Shown: in pieces, positions 1 through 54,446 of the stretch | Numbering within the stretch: the stretch's first letter is position 1 | Layout: every line of letters starts with the position of its first letter | DNA from: a phage | DNA: 64,000 bases | Strand: one strand, 5' to 3' | Sequence record: PZ402300.1 | Notes under the pieces: generated by a model | What the model saw: the letters and a program-made list of their open reading frames with translations, nothing else | Told to the model about the DNA's origin: nothing | Database searches by the model: none | Translations under genes and position numbers: made by a program

Positions 1-131
1 AGTTCATTACCATTAAGCATAAAGTTGTTGGTGCTGGAATTTTCGGTAAGTGGGTGTGGGCTGGGGCAGGTGCAATTATTGGTGTATTGGCTGCTGCAAG
101 ACGGGAGATATTCGCATGGTTCGCAGGCTAA
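1..131 (+). CDS. 3' end of a gene truncated by the window start; hydrophobic C-terminus (…VVGAGIFGKWVWAGAGAIIGVLAAARREIFAWFAG), possible holin or other lysis membrane protein
   Basis: Open frame 3 from position 3 to TAA at 129-131; Gly/Ala-rich transmembrane-like tail; sits directly upstream of the lysis cassette. Confidence 0.3.
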   Translation, partial: FITIKHKVVGAGIFGKWVWAGAGAIIGVLAAARREIFAWFAG

Positions 132-376
132 AAAGAAAGGTAGAGTTAGTACCTAACTGGAAAAGATGCTGGAAATGGGCATCCATTCAGATTAGTACAC
201 TTGGTTTAATTATGTTTTCTGCCATAGATATCATACAGCCAATGATGACAGGATTACCTCGTCACATCCTGGAAGATATCCCCCATGGTTCCAATATTGC
301 AATTGCACTGTTTGCCTTAAATATTGTAGGCAGATTAATACGTTTCCGACCAAAGGAAGATTCACATGAAAGCTAA
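116..376 (+). CDS. Small membrane protein with two predicted TM segments; holin/pinholin or antiholin candidate
   Basis: Track ORF 50..376; in-frame ATG at 116 preceded by GGAG at 103-106; hydrophobic stretches ASIQISTLGLIMFSAIDII and SNIAIALFALNIVGRLI; overlaps endolysin start. Confidence 0.45.
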   Translation: MVRRLKRKVELVPNWKRCWKWASIQISTLGLIMFSAIDIIQPMMTGLPRHILEDIPHGSNIAIALFALNIVGRLIRFRPKEDSHES

Positions 377-1001
377 ACAGAAACTTGCTGCGAAAGGTGG
401 TGCAGTGGGAGGAGTTGTCGCTGCTATCCTGGGGGCAGTGTTTTATATGGAAGGGGGTTATGTAAACAATCCTCGTGACCCAGGTGGGGAAACTAATCAT
501 GGTATTACTCAATCAGTTGCTAAGACTCATAAAGAAGTACTAGCTACTGAATACGGTTGGGATGGTTCTATGAAAGGTTTATCTAAAGAGATGGCTGCTG
601 AGATATACATTGATGACTACGTACTTAAGCCTAACTTCGTAGCCTTTGCTGATATATCTCCTGCTGTAACACACAAGCTGGTAGATGCTGGTGTTAACAC
701 TGGTGTAACCCGTCCTGCTAAGTGGTTGCAGTTATCTCTTAATGAGATGTCCCGTAATGGCAAAGACTACCCTAAAATACAGGTTGATGGTAAAGTCGGT
801 ACAAGTACTGTTAATGCATATAAAGCATTACAGAAAAAACGAGGCAAAGTTGCAGCATGTCAGGTAATGATTAAGTTACTTGATGCCAAACAACTGAACC
901 ACTACACCTCATTAAACATGCCAGACTTTACGTATGGTTGGGTAGCTAACCGAATAGGCAATGTGCCACTGGAGGCATGTAATGAAGATGCTAATCACTA
1001 A
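366..1001 (+). CDS. Endolysin, GH108-type N-acetylmuramidase with C-terminal peptidoglycan-binding domain; N-terminal Gly/Ala-rich hydrophobic segment suggests a SAR endolysin (N4 gp61-like)
   Basis: Motif MEGGYVNNPRDPGGETNHGIT typical of GH108 lysins; N-terminus KGGAVGGVVAAILGAVFY is SAR-like; position next to spanins. Confidence 0.75.
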   Translation: MKAKQKLAAKGGAVGGVVAAILGAVFYMEGGYVNNPRDPGGETNHGITQSVAKTHKEVLATEYGWDGSMKGLSKEMAAEIYIDDYVLKPNFVAFADISPAVTHKLVDAGVNTGVTRPAKWLQLSLNEMSRNGKDYPKIQVDGKVGTSTVNAYKALQKKRGKVAACQVMIKLLDAKQLNHYTSLNMPDFTYGWVANRIGNVPLEACNEDANH

Positions 1002-1488
1002 GGGTTGGCCTTATCTTCTGGTGGTGGTCCTAGGGGCCACCATTTACTTTTGGGGAAATTCCAATGGGCAGTCTACTGTTCAAAAGAAATGGGATGACCA
1101 AAAGGTTGAAGATCAGAAGGCAATACAAAAAATACAGGACAAATACAATGCTCTCCAAAGAAACCATAGTTATGAAGTCGGGTTACTCACTTCCCGGTTG
1201 CAGACGGCTGAGAGTAATTACGCAAGCGAGCTTGCTCGCGTTAGCAGTGATTATGACAGCCGGATGCAACAGTCTGAAAGACGAGCATCGGTATATAAAC
1301 GTCAAGCCGAAGCCGGAACCTTTGAGTGCAGAAGTCTTGCAAGCCATGCAGCCAGACTCGACAACAGTCTTGAAGAAGGCAGACGTTTGGTTGAAGAACT
1401 CAGGGCAACTGTTAGACTCCGTGACAGCCAACTAATTGAGTTGGGTAAACAGATTCAGGCTGACCGTAAACTTTTTGAACAGGAATAA
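982..1488 (+). CDS. i-spanin (Rz-like): N-terminal TM segment followed by coiled-coil periplasmic domain
   Basis: Track ORF 961..1488; likely start ATG 982 after GGAGG at 971-975; [26 protein letters not shown] then charged helical region; contains embedded o-spanin. Confidence 0.6.
1172..1435 (+). CDS. o-spanin (Rz1-like outer-membrane lipoprotein) entirely embedded in the +1 frame of the i-spanin gene
   Basis: [32 protein letters not shown]: basic n-region, hydrophobic core, lipobox-like TAGC; proline-rich mature part. Confidence 0.55.
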   Translation: MKSGYSLPGCRRLRVITQASLLALAVIMTAGCNSLKDEHRYINVKPKPEPLSAEVLQAMQPDSTTVLKKADVWLKNSGQLLDSVTAN

Positions 1489-1490
1489 CT

Positions 1491-3761
1491 ATGGAACACC
1501 AAGACACTTTTAAGCCTTTACCAGACCCGGCTCAATCAGAGAAGTTAACGGACTGGAAGAAGGAACCAAGTATCCAATTACTGAAAGGTGATTTGGAATC
1601 AGCTAAACCTGCTCACGATGCAATCATGGCTCAGATTCGTGAGTGGAATGATTTGATGGAAGTTAAGGGTAAGGCTAAACCCCCAAAGGTTAAAGGACGT
1701 TCACAAGTCCAACCTAGACTGGTTCGCCGTCAGGCAGAGTGGCGTTATGCACCATTGTCTGAACCATTCCTCTCATCCAACAAACTCTTTAAGGTAACTC
1801 CCGTTACTTTTGAAGATGAGTTAGCTGCACGACAGAATGAACTAGTTCTTAACTACCAATTCCGTACCCAGCTTAATAAAGTAAAACTGGTAGATGATTA
1901 CGTACACAGTGTAGTGGATGATGGTACAGGTATTGCTCGTATTGGTTGGGAACGTAAGACTGTTAAGATTAAAACGGAAACTCCAGTATTCCAGCTGTAT
2001 CCAATTGAGAACCAGGAACAAGCAGACATTCTTCAGCAGGCTCTTCAGCTTCAGGCAGAGAATCCTCGTGAATATGATGAAACAATGCCCGAAGATATTA
2101 AGGAAGCTGTTAACTACTTCAATGAAACTGGAGAAGCTACCTATGCAATCCAGACTGGCGTTACTGAAGTAGAGGTAGAGAAGGCACTGGTTAACAGACC
2201 TACTGTTGAAATGCTTAACCCAAATAACGTAGTTATTGACCCAAGCTGTAATGGTGATTTGGACAAGGCTCTGTATGCAGTTATCTCATTTGAGACTTGC
2301 AAAGCAGACCTAATGAAGAACAAAGACCGTTACCACAATCTGGATAAGATTGACTGGGAAAGTTCCAGTCCTATGACTGATCCAGACCATGAAAGTAAAA
2401 CTCCTGGTGATTTCCAGTTTAAGGATGCACTTCGTAAAAAAGTCATTGCTTATGAATACTGGGGATTCTATGACATCAATGATGACGGTTCACTTGAACC
2501 TATTGTTGCTACCTGGATTGGTTCTACTCTTATTCGTATGGAGAAGAACCCATTCCCTGACGGTAAGTTACCGTTGGTAGTTGTTCCCTATATGCCACGT
2601 AAACGTGAACTCTATGGTGAAGCTGATGCTGAACTGTTAGGGGATAACCAAGCAATTCTTGGTGCAACTATGCGTGGGATGATTGACCTGTTAGGTCGAA
2701 GTGCAAATGGTCAACGTGGTTATCCTAAAGGGATGTTAGATACCCTTAACCGTCGTCGATATGACGATGGGCAGGATTATGAATACAACCCAATGCAGGG
2801 TAATCCTAGTCAGGCCATTATGGAGCACAAGTTCCCTGAGTTACCTCAGTCGGCAATAGTAATGACTCAGATGCAAAACCAGGAAGCAGAAGCACTAACA
2901 GGTGTTAAAGCATTTTCTGGTGGTGTAACTGGTGAAGCTTACGGTGATGTTGCTGCTGGTATTCGTGGTGTACTAGATGCAGCATCAAAACGTGAAATGG
3001 CAATCCTTCGTCGATTAGCTAAAGGCATGGCAGACATTGGTACTAAGATTTGTGCAATGAATGCTGTGTTCTTATCTGAGAAAGAAGTGGTACGTATTAC
3101 TAATGAACAGTATGTAGAAATTAACCGAGAAGACCTTAAAGGTAATTTCGATATTGAAGTTGATATTAATACTGCTGAAATTGATAACCAGAAATCTCAG
3201 GATTTGAGCTTCATGGTTCAAACATTAGGTAATACGGTTGATCAGACTATTACGTTATCTATTGTAGCTAAGATTGCAGAACTTAAACGTATGCCAGACC
3301 TCGCACATGAATTACGTACATGGAAACCACAACCAGACCTTATGGAAGAACAGCTTAAGCAGTTGGCAATTCAGAAAGCCCAGCTTGAGAATGAAGAGCT
3401 GAAAAGTAAGATTGCACTCAATAATGCTAAGGCTAAAGAAGCTATTTCTAGTGGTGACCTTAAAGACCTGGATTATCTGGAACAGGAATCTGGTACTAAA
3501 CATGCTCGTGATATGGAAAAACAAAAAGCACAATCCCAAGGAAACCAGAACCTTCAGATAACTAAGGCGTTGACAACACCTACTAAAGAAGGTGAAACTA
3601 CCCCCAACATATCTGCTGCTGTCGGATATAACGCTTTGACTAACGGGAACTCTTTACAGGAACGTGACTTAGCTGCACAGCAAGACCCGACTTATTCACT
3701 TAGTTCCCAGTATTATGACCCTAGCCAAGACCCAGCATCGGCTCTTGGTATGAACTTATAA
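1491..3761 (+). CDS. Portal protein (N4 gp59-like)
   Basis: 756 aa; size and position upstream of capsid genes in conserved N4-like late gene order. Confidence 0.75.
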
Positions 3762-3774
3762 GGCAGACCTTCAC

Positions 3775-4119
3775 ATGAGTAAAGAATCAACAATCGCAGG
3801 ACTGGAACATCGACTGGAAGCTGCTAAAGGTGCAGTTGCACATGCAGAGGATGTACGTAAACTTCTGGAAAACCCACTGTTCCGTAAAGTAATCCTTCGT
3901 CAGTTCTGTGTGGAAGATTGTGCACGTTACGTGCAGGAGTCTGGTGACCCACTGCTTGAACCTAATAACCGTGCAGATGCACTTAACATGGCTCAAGCTG
4001 CTGGTCACTTACGTCGTTGGCTCGACCTCGCCATTCGTATGGGTGAGAATGAAGCTGACGTTATTCTACAGGTAGAAGAAGAACTTGATGCAGTTCGTGC
4101 TGAACCTGAAGACGAATAA
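3775..4119 (+). CDS. Hypothetical virion-module protein (N4 gp58 position)
   Basis: 114 aa ORF, helical/charged; synteny only. Confidence 0.4.
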   Translation: MSKESTIAGLEHRLEAAKGAVAHAEDVRKLLENPLFRKVILRQFCVEDCARYVQESGDPLLEPNNRADALNMAQAAGHLRRWLDLAIRMGENEADVILQVEEELDAVRAEPEDE

Positions 4120-4138
4120 TTAACCGGAGATATTTCCT

Positions 4139-5359
4139 ATGACTACGGAAGCTGCAACCACAGCTTCCGACATTCTCGCAATGTCGGATGATGAGATTCT
4201 GAATATGGAAGCCCCAGCTATTATTGCTGAGGAAGACACTTCCACTCAGAACAACCCAGAAACCAACGGCGTACAGACTCCTGATGAAGAAGTTGACCCC
4301 TCTGCTGTTGAAGACCTACCAACCAAAGAAACTTCCCCTGAAACTGAACCAGTTGAAGATGATTCAGCAAATTCTTTAACTTCTGATAAAGTTGATGATA
4401 AAGTTGTTGACACAGAAGTTGATAGTAACGGCAAGCCGATTACTAAAGCTGAACCTTCTACTACTGAACCAGGCCAGGAACAGAAAGAAGAAGGCAAACA
4501 GTCTGAAGGTCTGCCTGCTGACTTCAACTATAAGGAAGGTTATGAGAAGTTGATGGCTCCTTTTAAAGCTAACGGCAAGATGATTACTCCCCGTTCTCCG
4601 GAGGAGGCCATTAGCCTGATGCAGATGGGTGCTAACTATACTCGTAAGATGCAAGAACTTCAGCCGTACCGTAAGGTAATGCTGATGCTACAGAACAACG
4701 GTTTAATGGATGAGGAAAAACTTTCTTTCCTGATTGACCTGGATAAGAAGAATCCTGAAGCCATTAAAAAGTTGTTGAAAGACTCTGGTACAGATCCTCT
4801 GGATTTTAATCCAGAAGAGGAAATTAATTACCAGGGTGGCAAACACCGTGTTACAGACACCGAAGCAGATTTTGCAACCGAAATTGACGACTTAAAGTCT
4901 ACTCAAGAAGGACAAGCTACATTAGGTGTTATTAGCTCGACATGGGATGCTGCCAGTAAAGATGCTCTTTATCATAATCGTGGCTTACTCCAGACTATTC
5001 ACGAACAGCGTGAGAATGGTATTTATGACACCATTGCTAACGAAGTGAATCGTCTCCAGATGTTAGGCCAGATTCCGGTAGGTACTCCATTTATTCAGGC
5101 TTATAACCACGTTGGTAACCTCCTTGCACAGCAGGGTGCATTTAACCAAGTGGCTAAGCCTGAACCGGTACAAGCAGTTAAACCAGCAGTTCAGCCGGTA
5201 GTGCGTGTAGCACGACCTAAGCAGACTCTGGCTAATAACGAGCAAGCTAAAGCAGCTTCCCTTAATCGGGCTGCTACACGTAAAGCTACACCTATTGTAA
5301 ACCCACTCGCTATGAGTGATGAAGATTTCGCTAAACTCCCAGTACCGGGTAGTCTTTAA
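4139..5359 (+). CDS. Hypothetical head-assembly protein with highly acidic low-complexity N-terminus (scaffold-like; N4 gp57 position)
   Basis: 406 aa; Asp/Glu/Pro/Thr-rich N-terminal third; immediately upstream of major capsid gene. Confidence 0.4.
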   Translation: MTTEAATTASDILAMSDDEILNMEAPAIIAEEDTSTQNNPETNGVQTPDEEVDPSAVEDLPTKETSPETEPVEDDSANSLTSDKVDDKVVDTEVDSNGKPITKAEPSTTEPGQEQKEEGKQSEGLPADFNYKEGYEKLMAPFKANGKMITPRSPEEAISLMQMGANYTRKMQELQPYRKVMLMLQNNGLMDEEKLSFLIDLDKKNPEAIKKLLKDSGTDPLDFNPEEEINYQGGKHRVTDTEADFATEIDDLKSTQEGQATLGVISSTWDAASKDALYHNRGLLQTIHEQRENGIYDTIANEVNRLQMLGQIPVGTPFIQAYNHVGNLLAQQGAFNQVAKPEPVQAVKPAVQPVVRVARPKQTLANNEQAKAASLNRAATRKATPIVNPLAMSDEDFAKLPVPGSL

Positions 5360-13314: not shown

Positions 13315-13375
13315 ACATTCACTTACTGTACAGTGAATCTTCTTATACGATATAAGTTTGAACAGGAATCATGCT

Positions 13376-16300
13376 ATGTCAACATTTGACCGTCTGGCAG
13401 GTTTCGCAGACAGCATCACTACTGCTAAGCAAGTCGATGTCTCTACTGCAACCTCTCGGAAACAAGCTGAACAAGGGCAAAGCCCTTTCCAACTAACCCC
13501 ACAGAACGCTTACCAATTACAGGCAGGTCGTGCTGGTGACTTAGGTGCTGGTGCATTTGACCCAGGTTCTATTCAGGCAGATTTTACTAATGCCTCCCCC
13601 CTTGAAATCGTAAACAAATATGGCAATGAGCAGGGAATGGACATTCTCAATGCTCGTGTCAATGCAGCTAATGCTGTTCGTCGTGATTTAACTAAGAGTC
13701 GTACATATGGTGAAGCACTTGGTGATACCCTTTTTGGTGTTGGTCTTGGTGTTGCTAATACCCTTGGGGGCATTGCTGCTCTTGGCACAGGTTTGGTCAA
13801 TGATAATGCCGGGGCATCCATTGCTTCCGGTCTTGACTGGTTAAACAAAGGTGTACACAACCTACAGTCTGATGCACTGAATGCTCGTCGTAATGTAGTA
13901 CAGAACCAGAACGTAATATCTGCACAGGAAAATGAGAAACTCTATAAGCAGGATGTTGCTAAAGGGGAAAGTGAACTCGTTGCTTCTCTGTCTCGCATTG
14001 GTCGTGATGCTTACGATTCCGTTGCTAACACTTTATCCAATGGTATGGCTGCTACAGATGGTCTGGCTGAGGGTGTTGGTTCTCTGTTTACAGGTGGTCC
14101 ATTAATTCGTGGTGTATCTGCACTTGGTAAAGTAATGGTAGGTGGGGATAAAGCTGTTAAGGGTATTACCTTAGCTGCTGAATTAGGTTCACGTCCTGCA
14201 CGTACTGCATTAGCTACTGGTCGTGTTGCTGCACCTGCTATGGCAATTGGTGGTATGGAAGCTGGTGGTGCATACCAACAGACTGCTAATGAAATTATGG
14301 AAATGCCATTCAGTGAACTGGCTGCTAAATCTTCTGTATACCAACAGCATATTAAAGACGGTCTGCCTCCTGAAGAAGCTCGTCGTCAGACTGCATCTGA
14401 AACGGGTATTACTGCTGCTGGTTTAACTGCTCCGATTGCTGCTCTTACTGGCCCATTAGTATCCAAGTTTGAACTTAACCCACTTAAGGTAGGTTCACTG
14501 GCTGGTGCTGGTTCTAATATGCTACGTGAGACTGTAGAAGAAGGTATTCAGTCTGGTACAAGTCAGTTTGCACAGAACAAGGCAATTCAGGGTAATGTAG
14601 ATGCTAATCGTGACCTGCTTAAAGGTGTTGGTGAACAAACCGGGCTTGGTGCATTGTATGGCTTTGGCTCTGCTGGAGTTGCTCAAGCTCCTGGTGCAAC
14701 TGTTAAGGCTGCTGGTGCTGCCGTTGGTCCTGCTGTACGTACTACCCTGGCTGGTGCTTCTCTGGCTGGTAAGGCACTAGCAAAAGTAGCTTCTCCTATT
14801 ACTAACATCCTGGTTCAACGTGGAGAAGAAGTAGCTAAACGTAACGAACAAGCATCCCCTGTATCAGACGCTACAGTTAATGCTGCTGCACAAGAAGCTA
14901 CTGCTCAGGCAGAACAAGCGCAAGCAACTGTACAGGAAGCAGTAGATGCAATGGACATTTCTCCAGAAGAGAAAGCTGCTGCTACCCAATATGCTGCTGA
15001 CTTAACTCAGGTAATGAAGTTTGACCCAGTAGAACTGGAACAAGCTAGTCCTGCAATCCGTGAAGCTGTTTCTGGTTCCACTAACCGTGTTGAAGCTATT
15101 CAGAAGATGGCTGACTTGGTTAATACTGCTGAAGACCCTAATGTTCAAATGGAAGCTGCAATCCAGATGTATGACAACATCATGTCTATGGATAGCTTCA
15201 TTAACCGTGACCCGGGTGCATTAGCTAATCTGGAACAAGGTTCTCCTGCTGCTAATATTGTTGACCAGTTCTCTGGTCTGATGGCTAACGTTCAGAATAC
15301 ACCAAAGGTACTTCGTGCATTCCGTGCTATTCATTCTATGATTCAGGAACAGGCTGAAGCAGGTAAACTGAAAGCTACTGAGGAAGCCAATCAAGCTCAG
15401 GCAAACAATATTGCTATGGCTGCTGATATGTCTCCAGAAGTACTGGATGCAGATTCAGTGAACATGGTTCTGAAACATGCAAGTGAAGGTAAGATTACAC
15501 TGGGGAATCGTCAGCGTGCTGCCCTGCAATCTGCTGCTGCTCTATTGCAAGGAGCACGAGAATTTGACGCTAAAGCAGAAGAACTAGGCTTACGTCCTCA
15601 AGACATTGTTAGTAAACAGATTAAAACCGACGAATCTCGTTCTAATGAAGGCCAGTACTCTGCGTTGCAACATGCTAAACGCATTCGTTCTGCGTACAAC
15701 TCTGGTAACTTCGATTTGGCTTCCGCTTATCTCGACGACTTTATGAAGTTCGCCCAGCACATGCAGAATAAGGTCGGAGCGTTGAATGAGCATCTGATTT
15801 CTGGGAATGCGGATAAAAATAAGTCTGTTCATTATCAGGCTCTTACTCCCTCGCGTGAATGGGTACGTAGTCGTACTGGCCTCGGTGTCAATCCGTATGA
15901 TACCAAGTCGGTTAAGTTTGCCCAGCAAGTAGGACTGGAGGCCAAGACCGTAGCTGATATTGCTAACGCACTTGCTACGGCTTACCCGGAGCTTAATGTT
16001 TCTCATGTGAAAGTTACCCCATTGGATTCACGTCTGGACAAACCTGCTGCCCAGGTAGTTAAAGAGTTCCGTCAGGGCAATCTTGATGCTGCTCAATCCC
16101 AACAGACCAATGAACCAGTGAATCAGGTTGATGAAACTCCTGTTACGAAACAGGAACCAGTTACCCCTACTGTACAGACTAAACCCTCTGTTAGTGAAGC
16201 TGTTAAAACAGAATCCACTATTAAAGAGTCTAAACCACAGTCTGTAAAAGAACCTGAGAACCAGTCTGAAAAACAGGATGTTACCCTCACTAATGAGGAT

Positions 16301-19300
16301 ACCACTCAGGAAGTGGCTGAAACTAAAACAGAAATGGAAACAGTGTTCCCTGTCTATAACAATGAAAAGACACCGAACCAGTTCATTAAAGCATTTTCTC
16401 TACCAGAAGAACCTAAGTCTCGTACCATTGGTTCTGAGTCTCCTCTGACCGATGTTAAGAAAGCACTGTCTTCTGCTGCTCGTTTCGAAGCATTCACTCA
16501 AAAAGAAAATAACGCCCTCACAAGTGATGTGATTAAGCGTTATCAGGACTTATTTGATTTTGGTGAAATTCTGAAGACTACCCTGTCTGACCGTCTGGCT
16601 AAGTTCCTTGCTAATAAGAATGTTGGTAAACGTTTTGCAGAAGGTACTGAGGCTAACCGTTGGGTAGGTGGTAAGTTACTTAACATCGTAGAAAAAGATG
16701 GTGACACCTTTAAGTTCAATGACCAGTTGTTAGAGACTGCTGTACTTGCTGGTCTGCAATGGCGATTAACTGCTACACAGAATGCTGCTGTTAAAGACAT
16801 GAAAGACGTAGCTGCTATTACTGGTGTAGAAGCATCTCTGCTACCAGAAGGCATTTTGGCTGATTTCGAAAATGCTCAGACATTGGTTGAAGCTACTAAC
16901 TCACTGGCTCAAAAGATTGAATCTTATTGGGGACTTAACCGTAATGCTGATGCACCACTTGGTTATACCAAGGGTATCCCAGTGGCAATGGCTACAGAGA
17001 TTCTATCTTCTTTTATTGAGATGGGTGTAGTTAAAGAGTCTATGCTGGATGTGTCTGAGATTGACCCAGAATCTAAAAAGACTGTTGGTCTGTATACCAT
17101 TGATAAGTTAGAGGATAATGATGCCATTAATAATTTCCCTACTGCTATTGAGGAAGCTGTCCTTGTAGAACCAGCAGAGAAACTGTACCTAGGTGATGAT
17201 ATTCCTTCCGTGGCTCCTACTCAGTTACGTAACCCTGCTGTCCGTAATACTCCAGAACAGAAAGCTGCTCTTAAAGCAGAACAGGCTACTGAGTTCTTTG
17301 TACATACTCCAATGGTTCAGTTCTATGAGGCGTTAGGTAAAGACCGTATCCTCGAACTGATGGGTGCAGGTACTCTGGATAAAGATTTACTTAATAAGAA
17401 CCATGCTAAATCTTTGGAAGGCAAGAATCGTTCAGTAGAGGATTCTTATAACCAATTGTTCTCTGTTATTGAACAGGTAAGAGCACAGAGTGAAGACATT
17501 TCCACTGTGCCTATTCACTATGCATACAATATGACTCGTGTTGGTCGTATGCAGATGTTAGGTAAATATACCCCCCAATCAGCTAAGCTGGTTCGTGAGG
17601 CTATTTTACCTACCAAAGCTACTCTGGATTTATCGAACCAGAACAACGAAGATTTCTCTGGCTTCCAGCTTGGACTGGCTCAGGCATTAGGTATCAAAGT
17701 TCATAAAATGACTCGTGAAACTATGTCAGAGGAACTTACCAAAGCTCTGGAAGGTAAGCTGAAACCTGCTGTAGATATGATGGTTGAGTTTGATAAGTCT
17801 GGATACTTACCTACTGATGCAGTGGATATCTTAAGAACATCTCTGGGTAATGATAAATCCTTTGTGGCTCTCATGGCTCTTATGGAATATGCCCGTTACC
17901 TTAACAGTGATGACCGTGCCAACTTTAATACTCCTTTGTACGTTGAAGCCGATGGGGTAACCAACGGACCAATCAACGCAATGGTATTAATGACTGGTGG
18001 TAAGTTCACTCCAAACTGGATTAAGAATACTGCCAAAGGTGGTTTGTTCTTTGGTAAAGCTGGTAAGACTATGAATGAGCATCATACGCAGGATGACAGT
18101 GTTGACCTGTATGAAGCATCTACAAATAGTCTGCAATTCTATCTGAATGAATTACGTAATACTTACAGTAAAAATATTCCAGTTATAAACCAGATGGACC
18201 ATCTCCAGAAGTTAATGAACTTGTTCATTAAAGACTTCAATCTTAAGGAAGACGGTACTCTGGACCTGAAGCGTGGTATCGCTAAAAACCCACTTACCAT
18301 TACCATCTATGGTTCTGGTGCTCGTGGTATTGCAGGCAAGATGGTAAGTGCAATTACTGATACCATCTATGAACGCTTAAGCGACGTTCTGAAAGCCCGT
18401 GCTGTTGACCCTAACATTCCCCCAGCTATGGCGATGTTTGGTAAGGAGGCTGCGTCTGAGGCTGATGCTCAGGCTATGCTGGATACCTTCCTTACTTCTA
18501 TGAAAGCGTTGACTGGGAATATTCCAGCTAAGCGTAAAGGTAAGTTATTCATTAAGGAAGTAGACGGTGTTCTGACTGGTAAGTTAGACCCCCAGGAGTT
18601 TACTGTATCTGGTAATGCTCTTAAGAACTTACAAGAGAATATGCTGCATTTCTTTGTTGAGCCAATGAGGCAAAGTATCCGGTTCACTGTTGGTGAGGGG
18701 TTGATGCACTCTACTGAGAATTTGCAGAAAGCTACCCAGATTCAATCTCTGGTATTGCAGGATATGTTCCAACAAGCAGTACAGGCTAAGCTGGCAGAAA
18801 AAGAAAAAGACCCAACATGGAAGAAGGGTGATTTCTTAACGCAGAAAGAATTGAATGAAATCCAGAATAGCTTAGCTCCACTGGCTCCAATGATTAAGAC
18901 TGGTTCCCAGACTTTCTACATTGCTGGAAGTGAGAATACTGACGTTGCTAACCAAGTATTGGCTACCAACTTAGATGACCGTATGCGTGTGCCAATGAGT
19001 ATCTATGCTCCTTCGCAGGCAGGTGTTGCAGGTATTCCCTTTATGACCATCGGTACTGGTGATGGCATGATGATGCAGACCCTTTCTACTATGAAAGGTG
19101 CTCCGAAGAATACCCTGAAAATCTTTGATGGTATGAACATTGGTATCAATGACATTACTGATGCAAGTCGTAAAGCTAATGAGGCTGTATATACTTCCTG
19201 GCAGGGTAATCCTATTAAGAATGTATATGAGTCTTTCTCTAAGTTTGTTAAGAATGTTGATTTAAATAAGCTGTCCGATTCAGCAATAGATGCTATTGCA

Positions 19301-22300
19301 AAGTCTGCTTTAGACTTTGAGCAACGTGCTCATATTGCCAGGGTAGATGGTGATAGAGATTATAAAATTTCTATGATTAGAGATTCTGGTATTGCATTAA
19401 TTGAGCGTAACCTACGTAACATTGCTTTGGGTGTAGATATTCGTCACAAGGTAATGGACCAGGTACAGGTCACTGTTGACCAGATGGCTGCTGTTGGTGC
19501 TCCTTATGTGAACAACGGTAAAATCTCTCTGGAAGGTCTGACTATAGACCAGCAAGTAGCCAAGCTGAACGAACTGTTTGATGCTGAATTAAACAAGCGT
19601 CGTGATGCAGTACGTGCTGCTAAAGCGGAACCAACGAAGGCAGAACCAGTGAAGGAAGTGCCGGTGAAAGTTGTACCAGCTATGGAGAAGGTAGGTCGTG
19701 TACTGAAGTCTGGTGTACGCCTGTTGTCTAATGCTGCTATTACTAAGCTGGCTAAAGAGATGTCTCCTGAACAGCAAGCAGTATTGAAAGAAATACAGAA
19801 ATCTCTTGCTGCTAAAGACTACAAGGTTGTTTACGGTACACCTTCTCAACTGGATGCCTACGCTATTGAGAAGAACATTACTCGCCCAGCACCAGAAGAT
19901 ATTGAAGCTGCTGAAGCAGGTAATGCATATGGCTGGACTAACTTTGAAGATAAGACCATCTACTTAGTTACCCCTTCCTTAGAGACTTTGGTTCATGAAT
20001 TAGTACATGCTTCTACTTTTGAATCTGTACTGGCTCACTACGAAGGCACCCCTAATGAAGCTGTCCAGAACATTGAAGACCTGATGAACCAGTTCCGTGC
20101 TTTGGATGTTAAGGATGAATCCCCGGTAGTACGTGAAGCATATGCCGATGCACTGAATACCATTAATGGTCATTTGTCTAATGGCTTTATTGAACCAGCA
20201 ATGGCTAAAGCTGCTGCACTGAATGAGTACATGGCTTGGGGTTTAACCAACCGTGAACTTATTAGTAAGCAGAAGAAAACCACTGCACTTAAGACTATGG
20301 TTCAGGCTGTATATGAAGCAATCAAACGTTTGGTATTCGGACGTAAGAAAGCTCCAGCTAATGCAGATGATATGTTCTCGGGCTTATTGTTTAACTCTGC
20401 TGTAGTTATGCGTGGGCAGGCTCCTACTGCTGCTGTAGCCAAAGACACTACCCTGTTCCATAACAAAGCATATGGTGACAATACTCGTCTGGAAGAGTTA
20501 GGGAAAACCTTCGATAAGTTGATTACTGACTACATTGGTTCAGAACCAGTACAGCAAGTAATTCGTAAAGGTAAGTTTTCCGATGCAGTAGTGAATGCAA
20601 CTAAAGTAACTCGTGATGTTCAGGCTCATGGCTTCACCATGAATATGCAGGAACAGCGTCTCTTTACTAACATTGTTGCTGCTCTCGCTACCGAGGCTGC
20701 TATTAACCCTGCTGCTCTGGCTCGTGCACAGGAATACTACACGCATGTTACTAAGAATCTGACTGTTGAAGCATTTATGTCTGACCCTGATAGTACTAAC
20801 CCTGCTGACCGTTACTATGCACAGCAGAAGTTCGATACCATCATGGGTGCTAACAACATTGAGTTTGATGCACAAGGTCGTTCTTCCTTACTGCCTACCT
20901 TTGTTGGTCTGGCAATGGTAAGCGAAGAGGTACGTAAGGTACTGGCTTATATTCCTGTTATGAAAGCAGATAAGAAATCAGGCAATACCGTTGATGCAAT
21001 GCTGACTAATATCGGTACTGCTGCAATGGCTAGTTTGAATGCTCGTGTAGCAGGCGATACTAAAGCCACTAACGTACAAGAAGGTATGGATGCACTGGCT
21101 CAGACAATCATGCAGACCAGCCTTAATGCAGAGTCCTTCTATGATTCCGTTGCTACTCCTACCGGTAATGCTATTGACCGTGCTAACCAGTATCTGGTGG
21201 ATTCTATTGATGTACTGTCTACCCGTGCTTTAGAAGGTGCTCGTGAAGTTGCAGCTAATACCAAGAACCCATTGGTTAAAGGTGCTGCTCATGCTGCACA
21301 ACTGGTAGCTGCTATTGCTACAGAGAAGAATGGTTCAATCGTAGCTGAGGGTGTTATGGCTGCAATGAACCAAGGTAAAGTATGGCAACCTTTCCATGAC
21401 CTGGTTAATGACATAATCGGTCGTACTAAGAGCAATGCTTCTGTATACGATTTGATTAAAGCAGTACGTGCACAGGTACAAGCTGACCGTCAACAGTTCC
21501 GTGAACACCTACCTACCACTATCGCATCCAAATTCAGCCGTAAGCTGACTAATGATGAGTGGAAAGCAATGCATACCGGTATGGGTAAAACTGACTTAGC
21601 TGTTCTGCGTGACACTATGTCTCTGGCTGAAATCCGTGACCTACTGACTGACCAAAAGATTGTTGACCGTGAGGTTAATAAACTGGAAGCAGATTTGCAG
21701 AAACAAGCAGGACGTAACTGGCCTCTGATTAATCGTAAATCTAAGCAACTGGCTCAGTACATGATTAATGGTACAGTCGGTAATAACCTGCTGCGTAATG
21801 CTACTGCAATTTCACGTTTGCTGGGTGAACGTAAGACTACACGTTCTGTTGTAGATGTAGCTCAGCTGGATAAACTGATTACTTTATATGCACTGGAAGC
21901 AATGAATAAGACTGACCGTGAGATGTTATCTTCACTGGCTCAGACAGAAATTGAAGGTATGGACTTTGCTACATCTTACCTGGTTGGCCAGCGTAAAGAT
22001 GAAATGGCTAAAGTCAAGTCTGATAGTCGTGCAACTCTGAACCAGTACAAAGGGTATATTCCTGGTGAGACTAAACAGGGTGTTAACCTGATTGTTGCTG
22101 AAGATAGTCAGTTTGTTGATTTGATTGAGAAATCCTATGTACGTCTGGGGACTTATCAAGGTAGCTCTGCTAATCGTGGTCCAGCACGTAGTTACTACTT
22201 TGCACCAGTACAGGCACAGGCTCCATTCTCACAGGGTATCCTACAGAACGTTCGCAATACTGCTGGTGGTGTAGACCTCGGCACAGGCTTTACGATGGGA

Positions 22301-52796: not shown

Positions 52797-53839
52797 CTTA
52801 GCAATGTCAGACAGAATCTGATTGTACTGACGACGCAGGTCATTACCGTAGTTAGGATGGCATCTAAAACCATTAGTTAAACGAGTCGTTAGCTCGCCCT
52901 TACCTTCCATGATTAACATGGAAGCCATACGTAGCATCTGCTTCTTTACGAGCAAGCATTGCCTCCTCAAGTGTGTCATACGTACCCAGACCGATCTGTT
53001 TACGATTGACTGTGATGTGTGCCTGGAATCTACCAGAAGGTAATATTCTTACACCATTCACTTTGCTTGATGTATTACGTGATAAACCCATATTCATCTG
53101 GTTCTGTCTACTGGTTACATTTCTCAGATTAGACCAACGGTTGTCGTTTCTAATGTGATTGATGTGATCCACCTGGTTAGGTGTTTCCCCTGTTTCCATT
53201 ATCCAGATTATTCGATGCAGTAAGTACTCTTTACGACCCAGACTAACAGATAAATAGCCTTCTTTGTGAGGATACCCCACAATTGTTCCGGCTAATCCAC
53301 TAGCAGAGTCGTAACGATGAGTTACTAGCCCACTTTCTCTGTCATACCGTAAAACCTTCTTCAAAGATTCTTGGGTAATAGTATCCAAGTCTTTTATCAG
53401 GTTCTTACAGGTAGGACATAGGTGGCCTATTGGACTCTTTTTAGCATCATAGAAGTTGCAAACAAACTCACTAGAGCATTGCTTACAACTACAGATAGCT
53501 GTGTACTTACCAGTTTTACGTAATATTTGGGAGTTATCTAACATATGGATTCCTTAGTAATTTTGCATACAATTTCAGATTGTATCCTAACCAAGGAAGT
53601 AAGTCTCCAGTTTTCACTGGAGTATCGGACTATATCATCACCCACTAATCAGTGGGGCAAGGCGCTTGGGTGGTCACTTGACTCACCTACTCTACTCACA
53701 TACGAAATGTTTTCGATAGTCTCTGAACCTTCCCTCATGGAGGGCTTGGCTGCTGATTGGCATATCCATAGGACTTAGCTTTCCAGCAATTCACCTTGTT
53801 TTCGACACGGATTACTCCGTGAAGGATCATTTATGTTTA
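52797..53839 (-). mobile_element. Group I intron 2 (approximate boundaries) carrying an HNH-AP2 homing endonuclease gene
   Basis: Minus-strand core elements AAUUGCUGGAAAGC (P-like), AAUCAGCAGCC (Q-like), GGUUCAGAGACUAUCG (R-like, 53714-53729) and GAUGAUAUAGUCCGAUAC (S-like, 53622-53639); begins with UAA directly after the exon-2 …VHD codon; P1 not identified, 3' end could be 52899 instead. Confidence 0.55.
52900..53544 (-). CDS. HNH homing endonuclease with C-terminal AP2-type DNA-binding domain (intron 2-encoded)
   Basis: 214 aa; HNH motif VDHINHIRNDNRWSNLRNV; AP2-like region VNGVRILPSGRFQAHITVNRKQIGLGTYDTLEEA. Confidence 0.7.
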   Translation of the reverse strand: MLDNSQILRKTGKYTAICSCKQCSSEFVCNFYDAKKSPIGHLCPTCKNLIKDLDTITQESLKKVLRYDRESGLVTHRYDSASGLAGTIVGYPHKEGYLSVSLGRKEYLLHRIIWIMETGETPNQVDHINHIRNDNRWSNLRNVTSRQNQMNMGLSRNTSSKVNGVRILPSGRFQAHITVNRKQIGLGTYDTLEEAMLARKEADATYGFHVNHGR

Positions 53840-54446
53840 ATCATGTACAGTCATTACAGGGAATGGCTTCTTAGGTAAAGTATTGAGCATAGTCAGGATT
53901 ACATCTGTATCAACCAATGCAATGGTTTCTGAGTCCAGATAATCAAAGATACGGGTAGACAGAAAGCCTGATTTCTCATAGCTAGCCCACAGTGTATTAA
54001 CCGTTTCATGACTAGCACCAGGGACAACTATGTATTCACCAGTTCCTTCACAGAGGGACTTAATATAGTTCACCTGGTTCACGTTGAAGTTACAACGACG
54101 CAGCATCTCACGTACCACCATCCCATCAATAGAGTGAGTGATGTTAGCAGAGAGCATACGGGTCTTCTCTTCAGTACCCTGAACCATACGAGTGATGTCG
54201 AATGGCTTACCTAAGAAGTTAACAGTCTGTACTTCAGGAACCATGACCTTAATGACAGCATGGAAGTTGTCAGGAAGTACCCATACGTAACGGTTAGCAT
54301 CAGGATTACCACATTGCAGTAAGAACTTGTTAAGTGCCCAAGGACCACTAGCAACAGTTTCCATTACATTCTCAAAAGTCTTGAGACGAATACCTTCACC
54401 GAATACTTCTTTAGGCTTGGCTTCTGAGCCGTAGAATGCAGTCATA
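53840..54446 (-). CDS. RNAP II large subunit, exon 2 (motif B second half through motif C region)
   Basis: Track ORF 53837..54445 (MTAFYGSEAK…VMTVHD); TAFYGS aligns to T7 RNAP TLAYGS (Y639); TLWASYEKSG aligns to T7 TVVWAHEKYG. Confidence 0.7.

Follow-up and report, generated by a model that had tools for sequence, protein, structure and literature searches.

The first 1,500 positions of a 64,000-nucleotide stretch of phage DNA (sequence record PZ402300.1; this whole stretch is called the window here) carry the late-gene lysis cassette of a G7C-like relative of phage N4, and we consider it most likely, with a probability of roughly 0.87, that this cassette operates as the N4 cassette does. It encodes a signal-anchor-release (SAR) type endolysin, two small membrane proteins of the N4 gp63 and gp62 types and an embedded pair of spanins. 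The lysis system is already known and annotated, and the result is a correct identification and not a new discovery. Only two points are mildly new: the tentative idea, which we infer, that the SAR helix is also helix alpha-1 of the enzyme and bears the catalytic Glu, and the slightly lower hydrophobicity of the SAR segment in G7C-type phages than in N4.

Open reading frame (ORF) analysis of positions 1 to 1500 revealed five tightly packed, overlapping genes on the plus strand, followed by a 756-residue portal gene of the SU10/N4 type, as identified by Pfam search. The first gene is of the gp63 type, the likely pinholin, and is cut by the window start; its last 42 codons and stop lie at 3..131, with frame 3 open from the edge. 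It is followed by the gene for a gp62-type small membrane protein of 86 residues (116..376; assigned by Pfam, phrog_1356 and homology to N4 gp62), that for a gp61-type endolysin of 211 residues (366..1001; assigned by Pfam and homology to N4 gp61) and that for an i-spanin of the gp60 type with 168 residues (982..1488; assigned by phrog_6197 and homology to N4 gp60). An o-spanin of the gp60a type is encoded in the +1 frame within the i-spanin gene (1148..1435; assigned by its lipobox and the St11Ph5 gp60.1 annotation). An earlier sequence-only reading of positions 1 to 1001 had described a SAR-type endolysin of family GH108 preceded by two small membrane proteins. All three of its ORFs (366-1001, 211 residues; 116-376, 86 residues; and the open frame 3-131) were found where it had placed them; however, the unit does not end at 1001, as the two spanin genes belong to it as well.

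The stop codon is TAA in all five genes. The gp62 and gp63 homologues overlap by 16 nucleotides (nt), the gp62 homologue and the endolysin by 11 nt, and the endolysin and the i-spanin by 20 nt. Purine-rich Shine-Dalgarno sequences lie 6-7 nt 5' of the starts at 116, 366, 982 and 1148; that of the gp62 homologue is GGGAGA, 7 nt before the ATG at 116. A promoter and terminator scan of positions 1-4200 gave nothing exceeding the shuffled expectation. A GC-rich hairpin of 11 pairs followed by a T-rich tract was noted at 1020-1044 on the plus strand, within the codons of the i-spanin transmembrane domain (TMD), and is probably incidental.

To place the cassette among known phages, positions 1-1500 were compared with phage records by megablast, and 87 records were matched. 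The closest over the full region were PD205, pSb-1, nithesis, St11Ph5 and Bp4, at 96-97% nucleotide identity; the records of pSb-1 and St11Ph5 place them in the genus Gamaleyavirus (the G7C group) of the Schitoviridae. A 3479-residue ORF at 13358-23797 fits an N4-type virion RNA polymerase. By sequence comparison, the window belongs to a G7C-like relative of N4, in the genus Gamaleyavirus of the Schitoviridae. The gene order gp63-gp62-gp61-gp60-portal of N4 matches that of the window, and the encoded proteins are 70% (gp61), 66% (gp62) and 57% (gp60) identical to their N4 counterparts. The corresponding genes of St11Ph5 are labelled gp63, gp62 (holin), gp61 (N-acetylmuramidase), gp60.2 (Rz-like spanin) and gp60.1 (Rz1-like).

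A locus search with a single protein gave 18 close relatives; wider diversity was sampled through annotated phage records and a large protein database. The gp63-gp62-endolysin order was kept in 59 phage records at a coverage of at least 80%, and the triad of gp63, gp62 and SAR endolysin is conserved in Enquatrovirinae, Rothmandenesvirinae, Erskinevirinae and Pokkenvirus. This recurrence of the three-gene order, in 59 records and several subfamilies of the Schitoviridae, shows that it is not a chance pattern. The triad is also present in Achromobacter phage Axy10, Stenotrophomonas phage Paxi and Erwinia phage Fifi287, while the holin of Pseudomonas phage ZC03 differs.

The functions of these genes have been studied in N4 by complementation and mutants (Awuah et al., bioRxiv 10.1101/2025.11.12.688109). 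Cloned N4 gp60-63 takes about 25 min to lyse E. coli. N4 gp61 is a SAR endolysin that rescues endolysin defects in both large-hole and pinholin backgrounds; alone with the spanins it gives slow lysis, and its rapid-lysis alleles add negative charge to the SAR segment (G12E). N4 gp63 is a pinholin: it complements S21 and not lambda S105, and it is conditionally essential. N4 gp62 is dispensable and late-lethal and was named a lysis regulator; its deletion advances wild-type lysis by about an hour, an effect that was not complemented. Finally, N4 gp60/gp60a complement lambda Rz/Rz1, and mature gp60a is 56 residues long (all from Awuah et al.). By analogy, the functions of the N4 lysis proteins would carry over to the phage of the window.

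We next consider the endolysin (366-1001), whose N-terminus reads MKAKQKLAAKGGAVGGVVAAILGAVFYMEGGY; the peptide quoted in the sequence-only reading corresponds to residues 10-27. Judged against the Pfam gathering thresholds, the protein matches Glyco_hydro_108 (PF05838) over residues 24-113 with 71.7 bits (cut-off, 21.2) and PG_binding_3 (PF09374) over residues 117-196 with 31.9 bits (cut-off, 24.6), as had been expected from the earlier reading. Glu29 of its EGGY motif (codon 450..452) is invariant in 72/72 aligned homologues. In the alignment with TtsA, Glu29 falls on the REGGY Glu, which is the catalytic residue E14 of that enzyme (PMC6996933), and Glu29 is predicted to be catalytic in the endolysin as well. 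An AlphaFold2 model built from 72 homologues had a mean predicted local distance difference test score (pLDDT) of 93.1, with residues 12-29 forming a single helix. Foldseek matched this model with probability 1.00 to TtsA (6v40), Sen1395 (6v3z), SagA (7dnp) and NMB1012 (2ikb), with TM-scores of 0.70-0.79 normalised by target length, and a sequence search of the PDB also pointed to GH108 enzymes. The endolysin thus belongs to the GH108 plus PG_binding_3 architecture of the N4 gp61 family. Purified N4 gp61 is, as cited in the preprint, a membrane-associated N-acetylmuramidase (Stojkovic & Rothman-Denes 2007, J Mol Biol 366:406, via Awuah et al.), and from the 70% identity to N4 gp61 the endolysin of the window is probably an N-acetylmuramidase too.

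The N-terminus of the endolysin has the sequence features of a SAR domain. Four lysines (K2, K4, K6 and K10) precede 18 uncharged residues, GGAVGGVVAAILGAVFYM (residues 11-28; 396..449), of which 50% are Gly or Ala, and these run directly into Glu29. The assignment of this segment is based on composition, hydropathy and the predicted helix. Its mean Kyte-Doolittle value is 1.87, and its Wimley-White octanol sum (scale of White & Wimley 1999) is +0.45 kcal/mol; the i-spanin TMD has -9.2 and the core of the first gp62 TMD -6.9. With a sum near zero, far from those of the genuine TMDs in the cassette, the segment is only marginally suited to stable insertion. Such marginal suitability is a hallmark of SAR domains. 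The weakly hydrophobic, Gly/Ala-rich N-terminus described in the sequence-only reading is thereby borne out.

The same N-terminal layout is common to all of the best 120 homologues from a search of 5.8 billion proteins. A scan for the EGGY-type motif matched 102 of these 120, and in 100 of the 102 at least 15 uncharged residues precede the Glu; in the remaining 18 the fourth motif position deviates and the N-terminus is alike. One homologue has already been named 'SAR endolysin N-acetylmuramidase [Stenotrophomonas phage Philippe]'. As residues 1-25 were masked as low complexity in BLASTP and tblastn, the SAR segments were compared by MAFFT alignment and direct parsing. The N4 alleles mapped onto the phage of the window were T65I and T71A in gp63 and G12E in gp61; Gly12 of N4 gp61, the site of the rapid-lysis change, corresponds to Gly15 of the endolysin studied here. 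The gp63 homologue lies two genes 5' of the endolysin, so that the enzyme is genetically paired with a pinholin type of protein. By analogy with N4, we expect that the full-length endolysin is released without signal peptidase cleavage, and that its release would be slow in the absence of a holin and synchronous upon depolarisation.

Two other readings of the N-terminal segment were weighed against that of a SAR domain. An ordinary cleavable Sec signal peptide, with the enzyme curbed in some other way as in Lys44 of Oenococcus phage fOg44, would share the layout of an n-region and an h-region (four Lys, then a hydrophobic stretch), and a loose -3/-1 rule permits cleavage after G23 or A24. However, the hydrophobic stretch has no polar c-region and abuts the invariant catalytic EGGY; a cut within residues 19-28, which align to a structural helix of soluble GH108 enzymes, would harm the fold; and N4 gp61 is reported to be membrane-associated and SAR-like, with G12E hastening lysis. 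We therefore regard a cleavable signal peptide as very improbable. An equally slim chance is given to a permanent type II signal anchor, with the enzyme acting while tethered or depending on a large-hole holin or on proteolysis. The 18 uncharged residues and the predicted helix at 12-29 are enough to span a membrane, but half of the segment is Gly or Ala and its Wimley-White sum is close to zero, where the stable TMDs of the cassette have -7 to -9 kcal/mol. Furthermore, N4 gp61 by itself lyses gradually and functions with the S21 pinholin, and deletion of the N4 pinholin selects compensating changes in the SAR domain, all of which speak against a permanent anchor and leave a releasable SAR domain as the preferred reading.

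Conservation within the SAR segment suggests a further role for its C-terminal half. In the homologue alignment, Gly, Ala, Val, Ile, Ser and Thr are freely interchanged at positions 11-20, while the best-conserved positions are I21, L/I22, V25 and F26, whose spacing, together with E29, fits one face of a helix. These conserved positions align with the first helix of soluble TtsA (DEIFAAILSRE) and of the phage Seifer lysin (ADQIIEGVLGKE), both of which bear charged residues in place of the Ala, Gly or Val found in the SAR form. It is conceivable, though we hold it to be somewhat less probable than its opposite, that residues 19-28, with the face I21/L22/V25/F26, also form helix alpha-1 of the GH108 fold with Glu29 at its end, so that membrane embedding would leave the active site incomplete and release would complete it. 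We infer this from alignment and conservation, and it does not have the standing of a result. If true, activation would proceed by refolding, as in R21 of phage 21, and the two unrelated folds would have arrived at it independently. The less hydrophobic SAR segment may also make the G7C-type phages natural 'rapid lysers', which would account for their reported absence of lysis inhibition.

The two upstream membrane proteins had both been proposed as lysis-related in the sequence-only reading and proved to be homologues of N4 gp63 and gp62. The cut frame 3-131 ends in FITIKHKVVGAGIFGKWVWAGAGAIIGVLAAARREIFAWFAG followed by the stop codon and has, as that reading had noted, a hydrophobic C-terminus; the complete gene in relatives encodes 109 residues. 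Its part in the window comprises the end of the 'Receiver' (FITIKHK), the Gly/Ala-rich membrane segment VVGAGIFGKWVWAGAGAIIGVLAAA and the tail RREIFAWFAG. In direct comparison, 38 of the 42 residues present in the window are identical to the C-terminus of N4 gp63, and the full 109-residue homologue of St11Ph5 is 68% identical to N4 gp63. The protein matches phrog_5211 and consists of a long, charged, helical N-terminal part and the single C-terminal hydrophobic segment. Thr65 and Thr71 of N4 gp63, the sites of its rapid-lysis alleles, are conserved in the G7C group, and Thr71 is the T of FITIKH in the window. By homology to N4, this truncated gene at the window edge, of the gp63 type with a single C-terminal TMD, is likely to encode the pinholin.

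When a full-length relative of the gp63 homologue was compared with Pfam, no family, holin families included, scored above threshold. Assignment to the S21-type class II holin family was considered and rejected, as the protein has one C-terminal segment and no Pfam holin family. In Bp4, PD205, ZQ2, UE-M6 and UE-S5a, the gp63-type gene is labelled variously as a 'hypothetical', 'tail length tape-measure' or 'tail needle' protein.

The gp62 homologue (116-376) matches DUF7940 (PF25612) with 54.4 bits against a cut-off of 27, and its hydrophobic segments at about residues 21-45 and 57-77 agree with the two TMDs assigned to it from sequence at the outset. It also matches phrog_1356, 'holin'. From the behaviour of N4 gp62, the protein would be an accessory lysis regulator with late holin-like activity. 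The sequence-only reading had offered the two upstream proteins as pinholin and antiholin candidates without saying which was which; the pinholin part of this is supported, with the cut gene and not the two-TMD ORF as the likely pinholin by homology to gp63, whereas the antiholin label is at most putative for the gp62 type: the earlier lysis of the N4 gp62 deletion was not complemented, and N4 gp62 itself is lethal late.

The roles of the two proteins could in principle be reversed, with the two-TMD DUF7940 protein being the real holin and the cut upstream gene an accessory factor or antiholin. Both phrog_1356 and RefSeq use the label 'holin' for the gp62 homologue, two TMDs recall class II holins, and N4 gp62 is lethal after addition of carbonyl cyanide m-chlorophenylhydrazone (CCCP) and eventually frees both SAR and soluble endolysins. 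On the other hand, it is gp63 that promptly complements S21 and is conditionally essential, and across subfamilies the membrane segment and Receiver region of gp63 are better conserved than gp62. We consider the reversed assignment unlikely, and retain the gp63-type protein as the likely pinholin. The public labels of the gp63 and gp62 homologues conflict with the N4 experiments.

The gp62 homologue might also start further upstream. A possible N-terminal extension of 22 codons (50..115, plus strand) begins at a GTG at position 50 that directly follows a TAA, and its frame overlaps the codons of the gp63 membrane segment. The resulting putative 108-residue form corresponds to the 109-residue, ATG-initiated N4 gp62 of the preprint, in which dual starts of gp62 are mentioned for N4 (Awuah et al.). 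The extension frame is open in Enquatrovirinae and Axy10 and closed in Paxi and Fifi287. Inspection of the start context of GTG 50 revealed no good Shine-Dalgarno sequence, and we estimate that chance would leave 22 codons free of stops across a conserved overlapping gene in about one case in three. Use of this extended start in the phage of the window is thus a poorly supported proposal.

The two spanins complete the lysis unit and extend it to position 1488. The i-spanin (982-1488) consists of a TMD at the N-terminus and a periplasmic domain that is helical; GGAGG lies 6 nt before its ATG, and the protein matches phrog_6197, 'Rz-like spanin', with an E value of 9e-78. The o-spanin contains the lipobox VIMTAG/C with the Cys codon at 1265-1267, giving a mature lipoprotein of 56 residues, a length that is conserved in the loci L011, L021 and L022. 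Together they form an embedded two-component spanin of the N4 gp60/gp60a family.

These observations, read together with the N4 experiments, can be arranged into a proposed mechanism. The host Sec system would export the endolysin, and its weakly hydrophobic, Gly/Ala-rich N-terminal helix would tether it in the inner membrane, where it is expected to be inactive because the SAR helix reaches right up to the catalytic Glu29. Meanwhile, the gp63-type protein, with a cytoplasmic helical N-terminus and a C-terminal membrane segment, would accumulate in the membrane and, at a set time, form small holes that collapse the membrane potential. Depolarisation would let the SAR helix exit the bilayer, and the enzyme would refold in the periplasm and cleave the glycan strands as an N-acetylmuramidase, after which the i-spanin/o-spanin pair would disrupt the outer membrane. 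The gp62-type protein with its two TMDs would be an accessory that tunes the timing and can cause lethal membrane lesions late.

Several points weigh against this account. All functional experiments come from N4, which is of another genus; moreover, the experimental account of N4 is a preprint. The window holds just the last 42 codons of the pinholin, and both the topologies and the lack of signal peptidase cleavage rest on simple scales and N4 data. The label 'holin' is given by RefSeq and PHROGs to the gp62 homologue and not to that of gp63, and N4 gp62 itself shows late holin-like lethality (Awuah et al.), so that the division of labour proposed here is provisional. Lastly, G7C is reported to be without the lysis inhibition typical of N4, so that regulation may differ (Awuah et al.).

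Elsewhere in the window, two insertions were observed in the gene for the large subunit of the middle RNA polymerase of the phage (RNA polymerase II). The gene is homologous to gp16 of N4 and G7C, and in G7C it is one uninterrupted ORF of 405 residues. An Rfam scan of the whole window revealed a full-length group I intron (RF00028) at 53605-53848 on the minus strand that scores 92.8 bits (gathering score, 50) and splits this gene. The insertion boundaries were placed by alignment with G7C. Insertion 1 (55253-54447, minus strand; 807 nt) contains a 186-residue endonuclease VII-like ORF at 55145-54585 (phrog_1035), and its match to the Rfam group I model is below threshold (36.1 bits; E value, 8e-7). 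Insertion 2 (53838-52871, minus strand; 968 nt) contains a 214-residue homing-endonuclease ORF with HNH_3 and AP2 domains at 53544-52900. For each insertion, there is one choice of splice sites with which the 5' splice site is preceded by T and the insertion ends in G, and excision at these sites restores the G7C frame exactly (KQAV/MTAFYGS for insertion 1 and TVHD/CFRCHPNYG for insertion 2). The insertion sites are presumably those of motifs B and C of T7 RNA polymerase.

Of the 62 phage records matched, ZQ2 and Moonfish alone share insertion 2, and in them the gene pieces around it are annotated as separate 'RNA polymerase' genes. A search of 50,697 phage records gave no close match to insertion 1, and a 22-mer taken from insertion 1 was unmatched in IMG/VR; in Achromobacter phage JWAlpha, a 53% identical endonuclease splits the RNA polymerase II gene at about the same position. 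By its sequence, insertion 2 is clearly a group I intron. Insertion 1 is probably one too, the alternative being a free-standing endonuclease that splits the gene. The window also contains two adjacent transfer RNA (tRNA) genes on the minus strand, at 25093-25166 and 25175-25247 (Rfam scores of 64.8 and 42 bits, respectively); ARAGORN identified the former as tRNA-Ile with anticodon AAT and made no assignment for the latter.

Dozens of sequenced coliphages carry genes near-identical to this cassette, and the mechanism has already been established for N4, which leaves little discovery value in the locus itself. Its interest lies partly in public annotation, which misleads when the likely pinholin is entered as 'hypothetical', 'tape-measure' or 'tail needle' and the accessory gp62 homologue as 'holin'. 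In addition, G7C-type phages carry the entire N4 cassette, yet are reportedly without lysis inhibition, and therefore offer a natural comparison for mapping the cause of the delay. GH108 SAR endolysins are also enzybiotic candidates, an application in which the N-terminal segment needs correct handling.

Compared with known systems, the cassette is closest to those of the G7C-like coliphages St11Ph5 (gp63-gp60.2), pSb-1 (gp16-gp13), Bp4 and EC1-UPM, in which nucleotide identity over positions 1-1500 is 96-97%, the ORF boundaries are identical and nothing of substance differs. With the N4 cassette (gp63-gp62-gp61-gp60/gp60a) it shares the five genes, their order, adjacency to the portal gene and 57-70% protein identity, as well as the length of the SAR segment and its position relative to EGGY, the 56-residue mature o-spanin, and Thr65 and Thr71 in the gp63 Receiver. 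The two differ in genus (Gamaleyavirus for the window, Enquatrovirus for N4), in the hydrophobicity of the SAR segment (Kyte-Doolittle, 1.87 versus 2.48; Wimley-White, +0.45 versus -0.27), in the start codon of the long gp62 form (GTG versus ATG) and in lysis inhibition, which is reported to be absent in G7C-type phages and present in N4.

Beyond the N4 group, soluble GH108 muramidases (TtsA, 6v40; Sen1395, 6v3z; the Klebsiella phage Seifer endolysin) have the same two-domain fold and catalytic EGGY Glu as the endolysin of the window, but are without its Lys-rich start and Gly-rich extension. The SAR/pinholin pairs of other phages (R21/S21 of phage 21, Lyz of P1, gp45/gp44 of phiKMV) resemble the window in their weak N-terminal tether, release by depolarisation and small-hole holin. 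Classical SAR endolysins, however, have a T4-lysozyme-type or GH24 fold, unrelated to the GH108 endolysin found here. The pinholins differ in topology, with one C-terminal TMD in the gp63 type and two TMDs in S21, the first of which is itself a SAR domain. Across this difference in fold and topology, N4 gp61 and gp63 cross-complement the phage 21 system (Awuah et al.).

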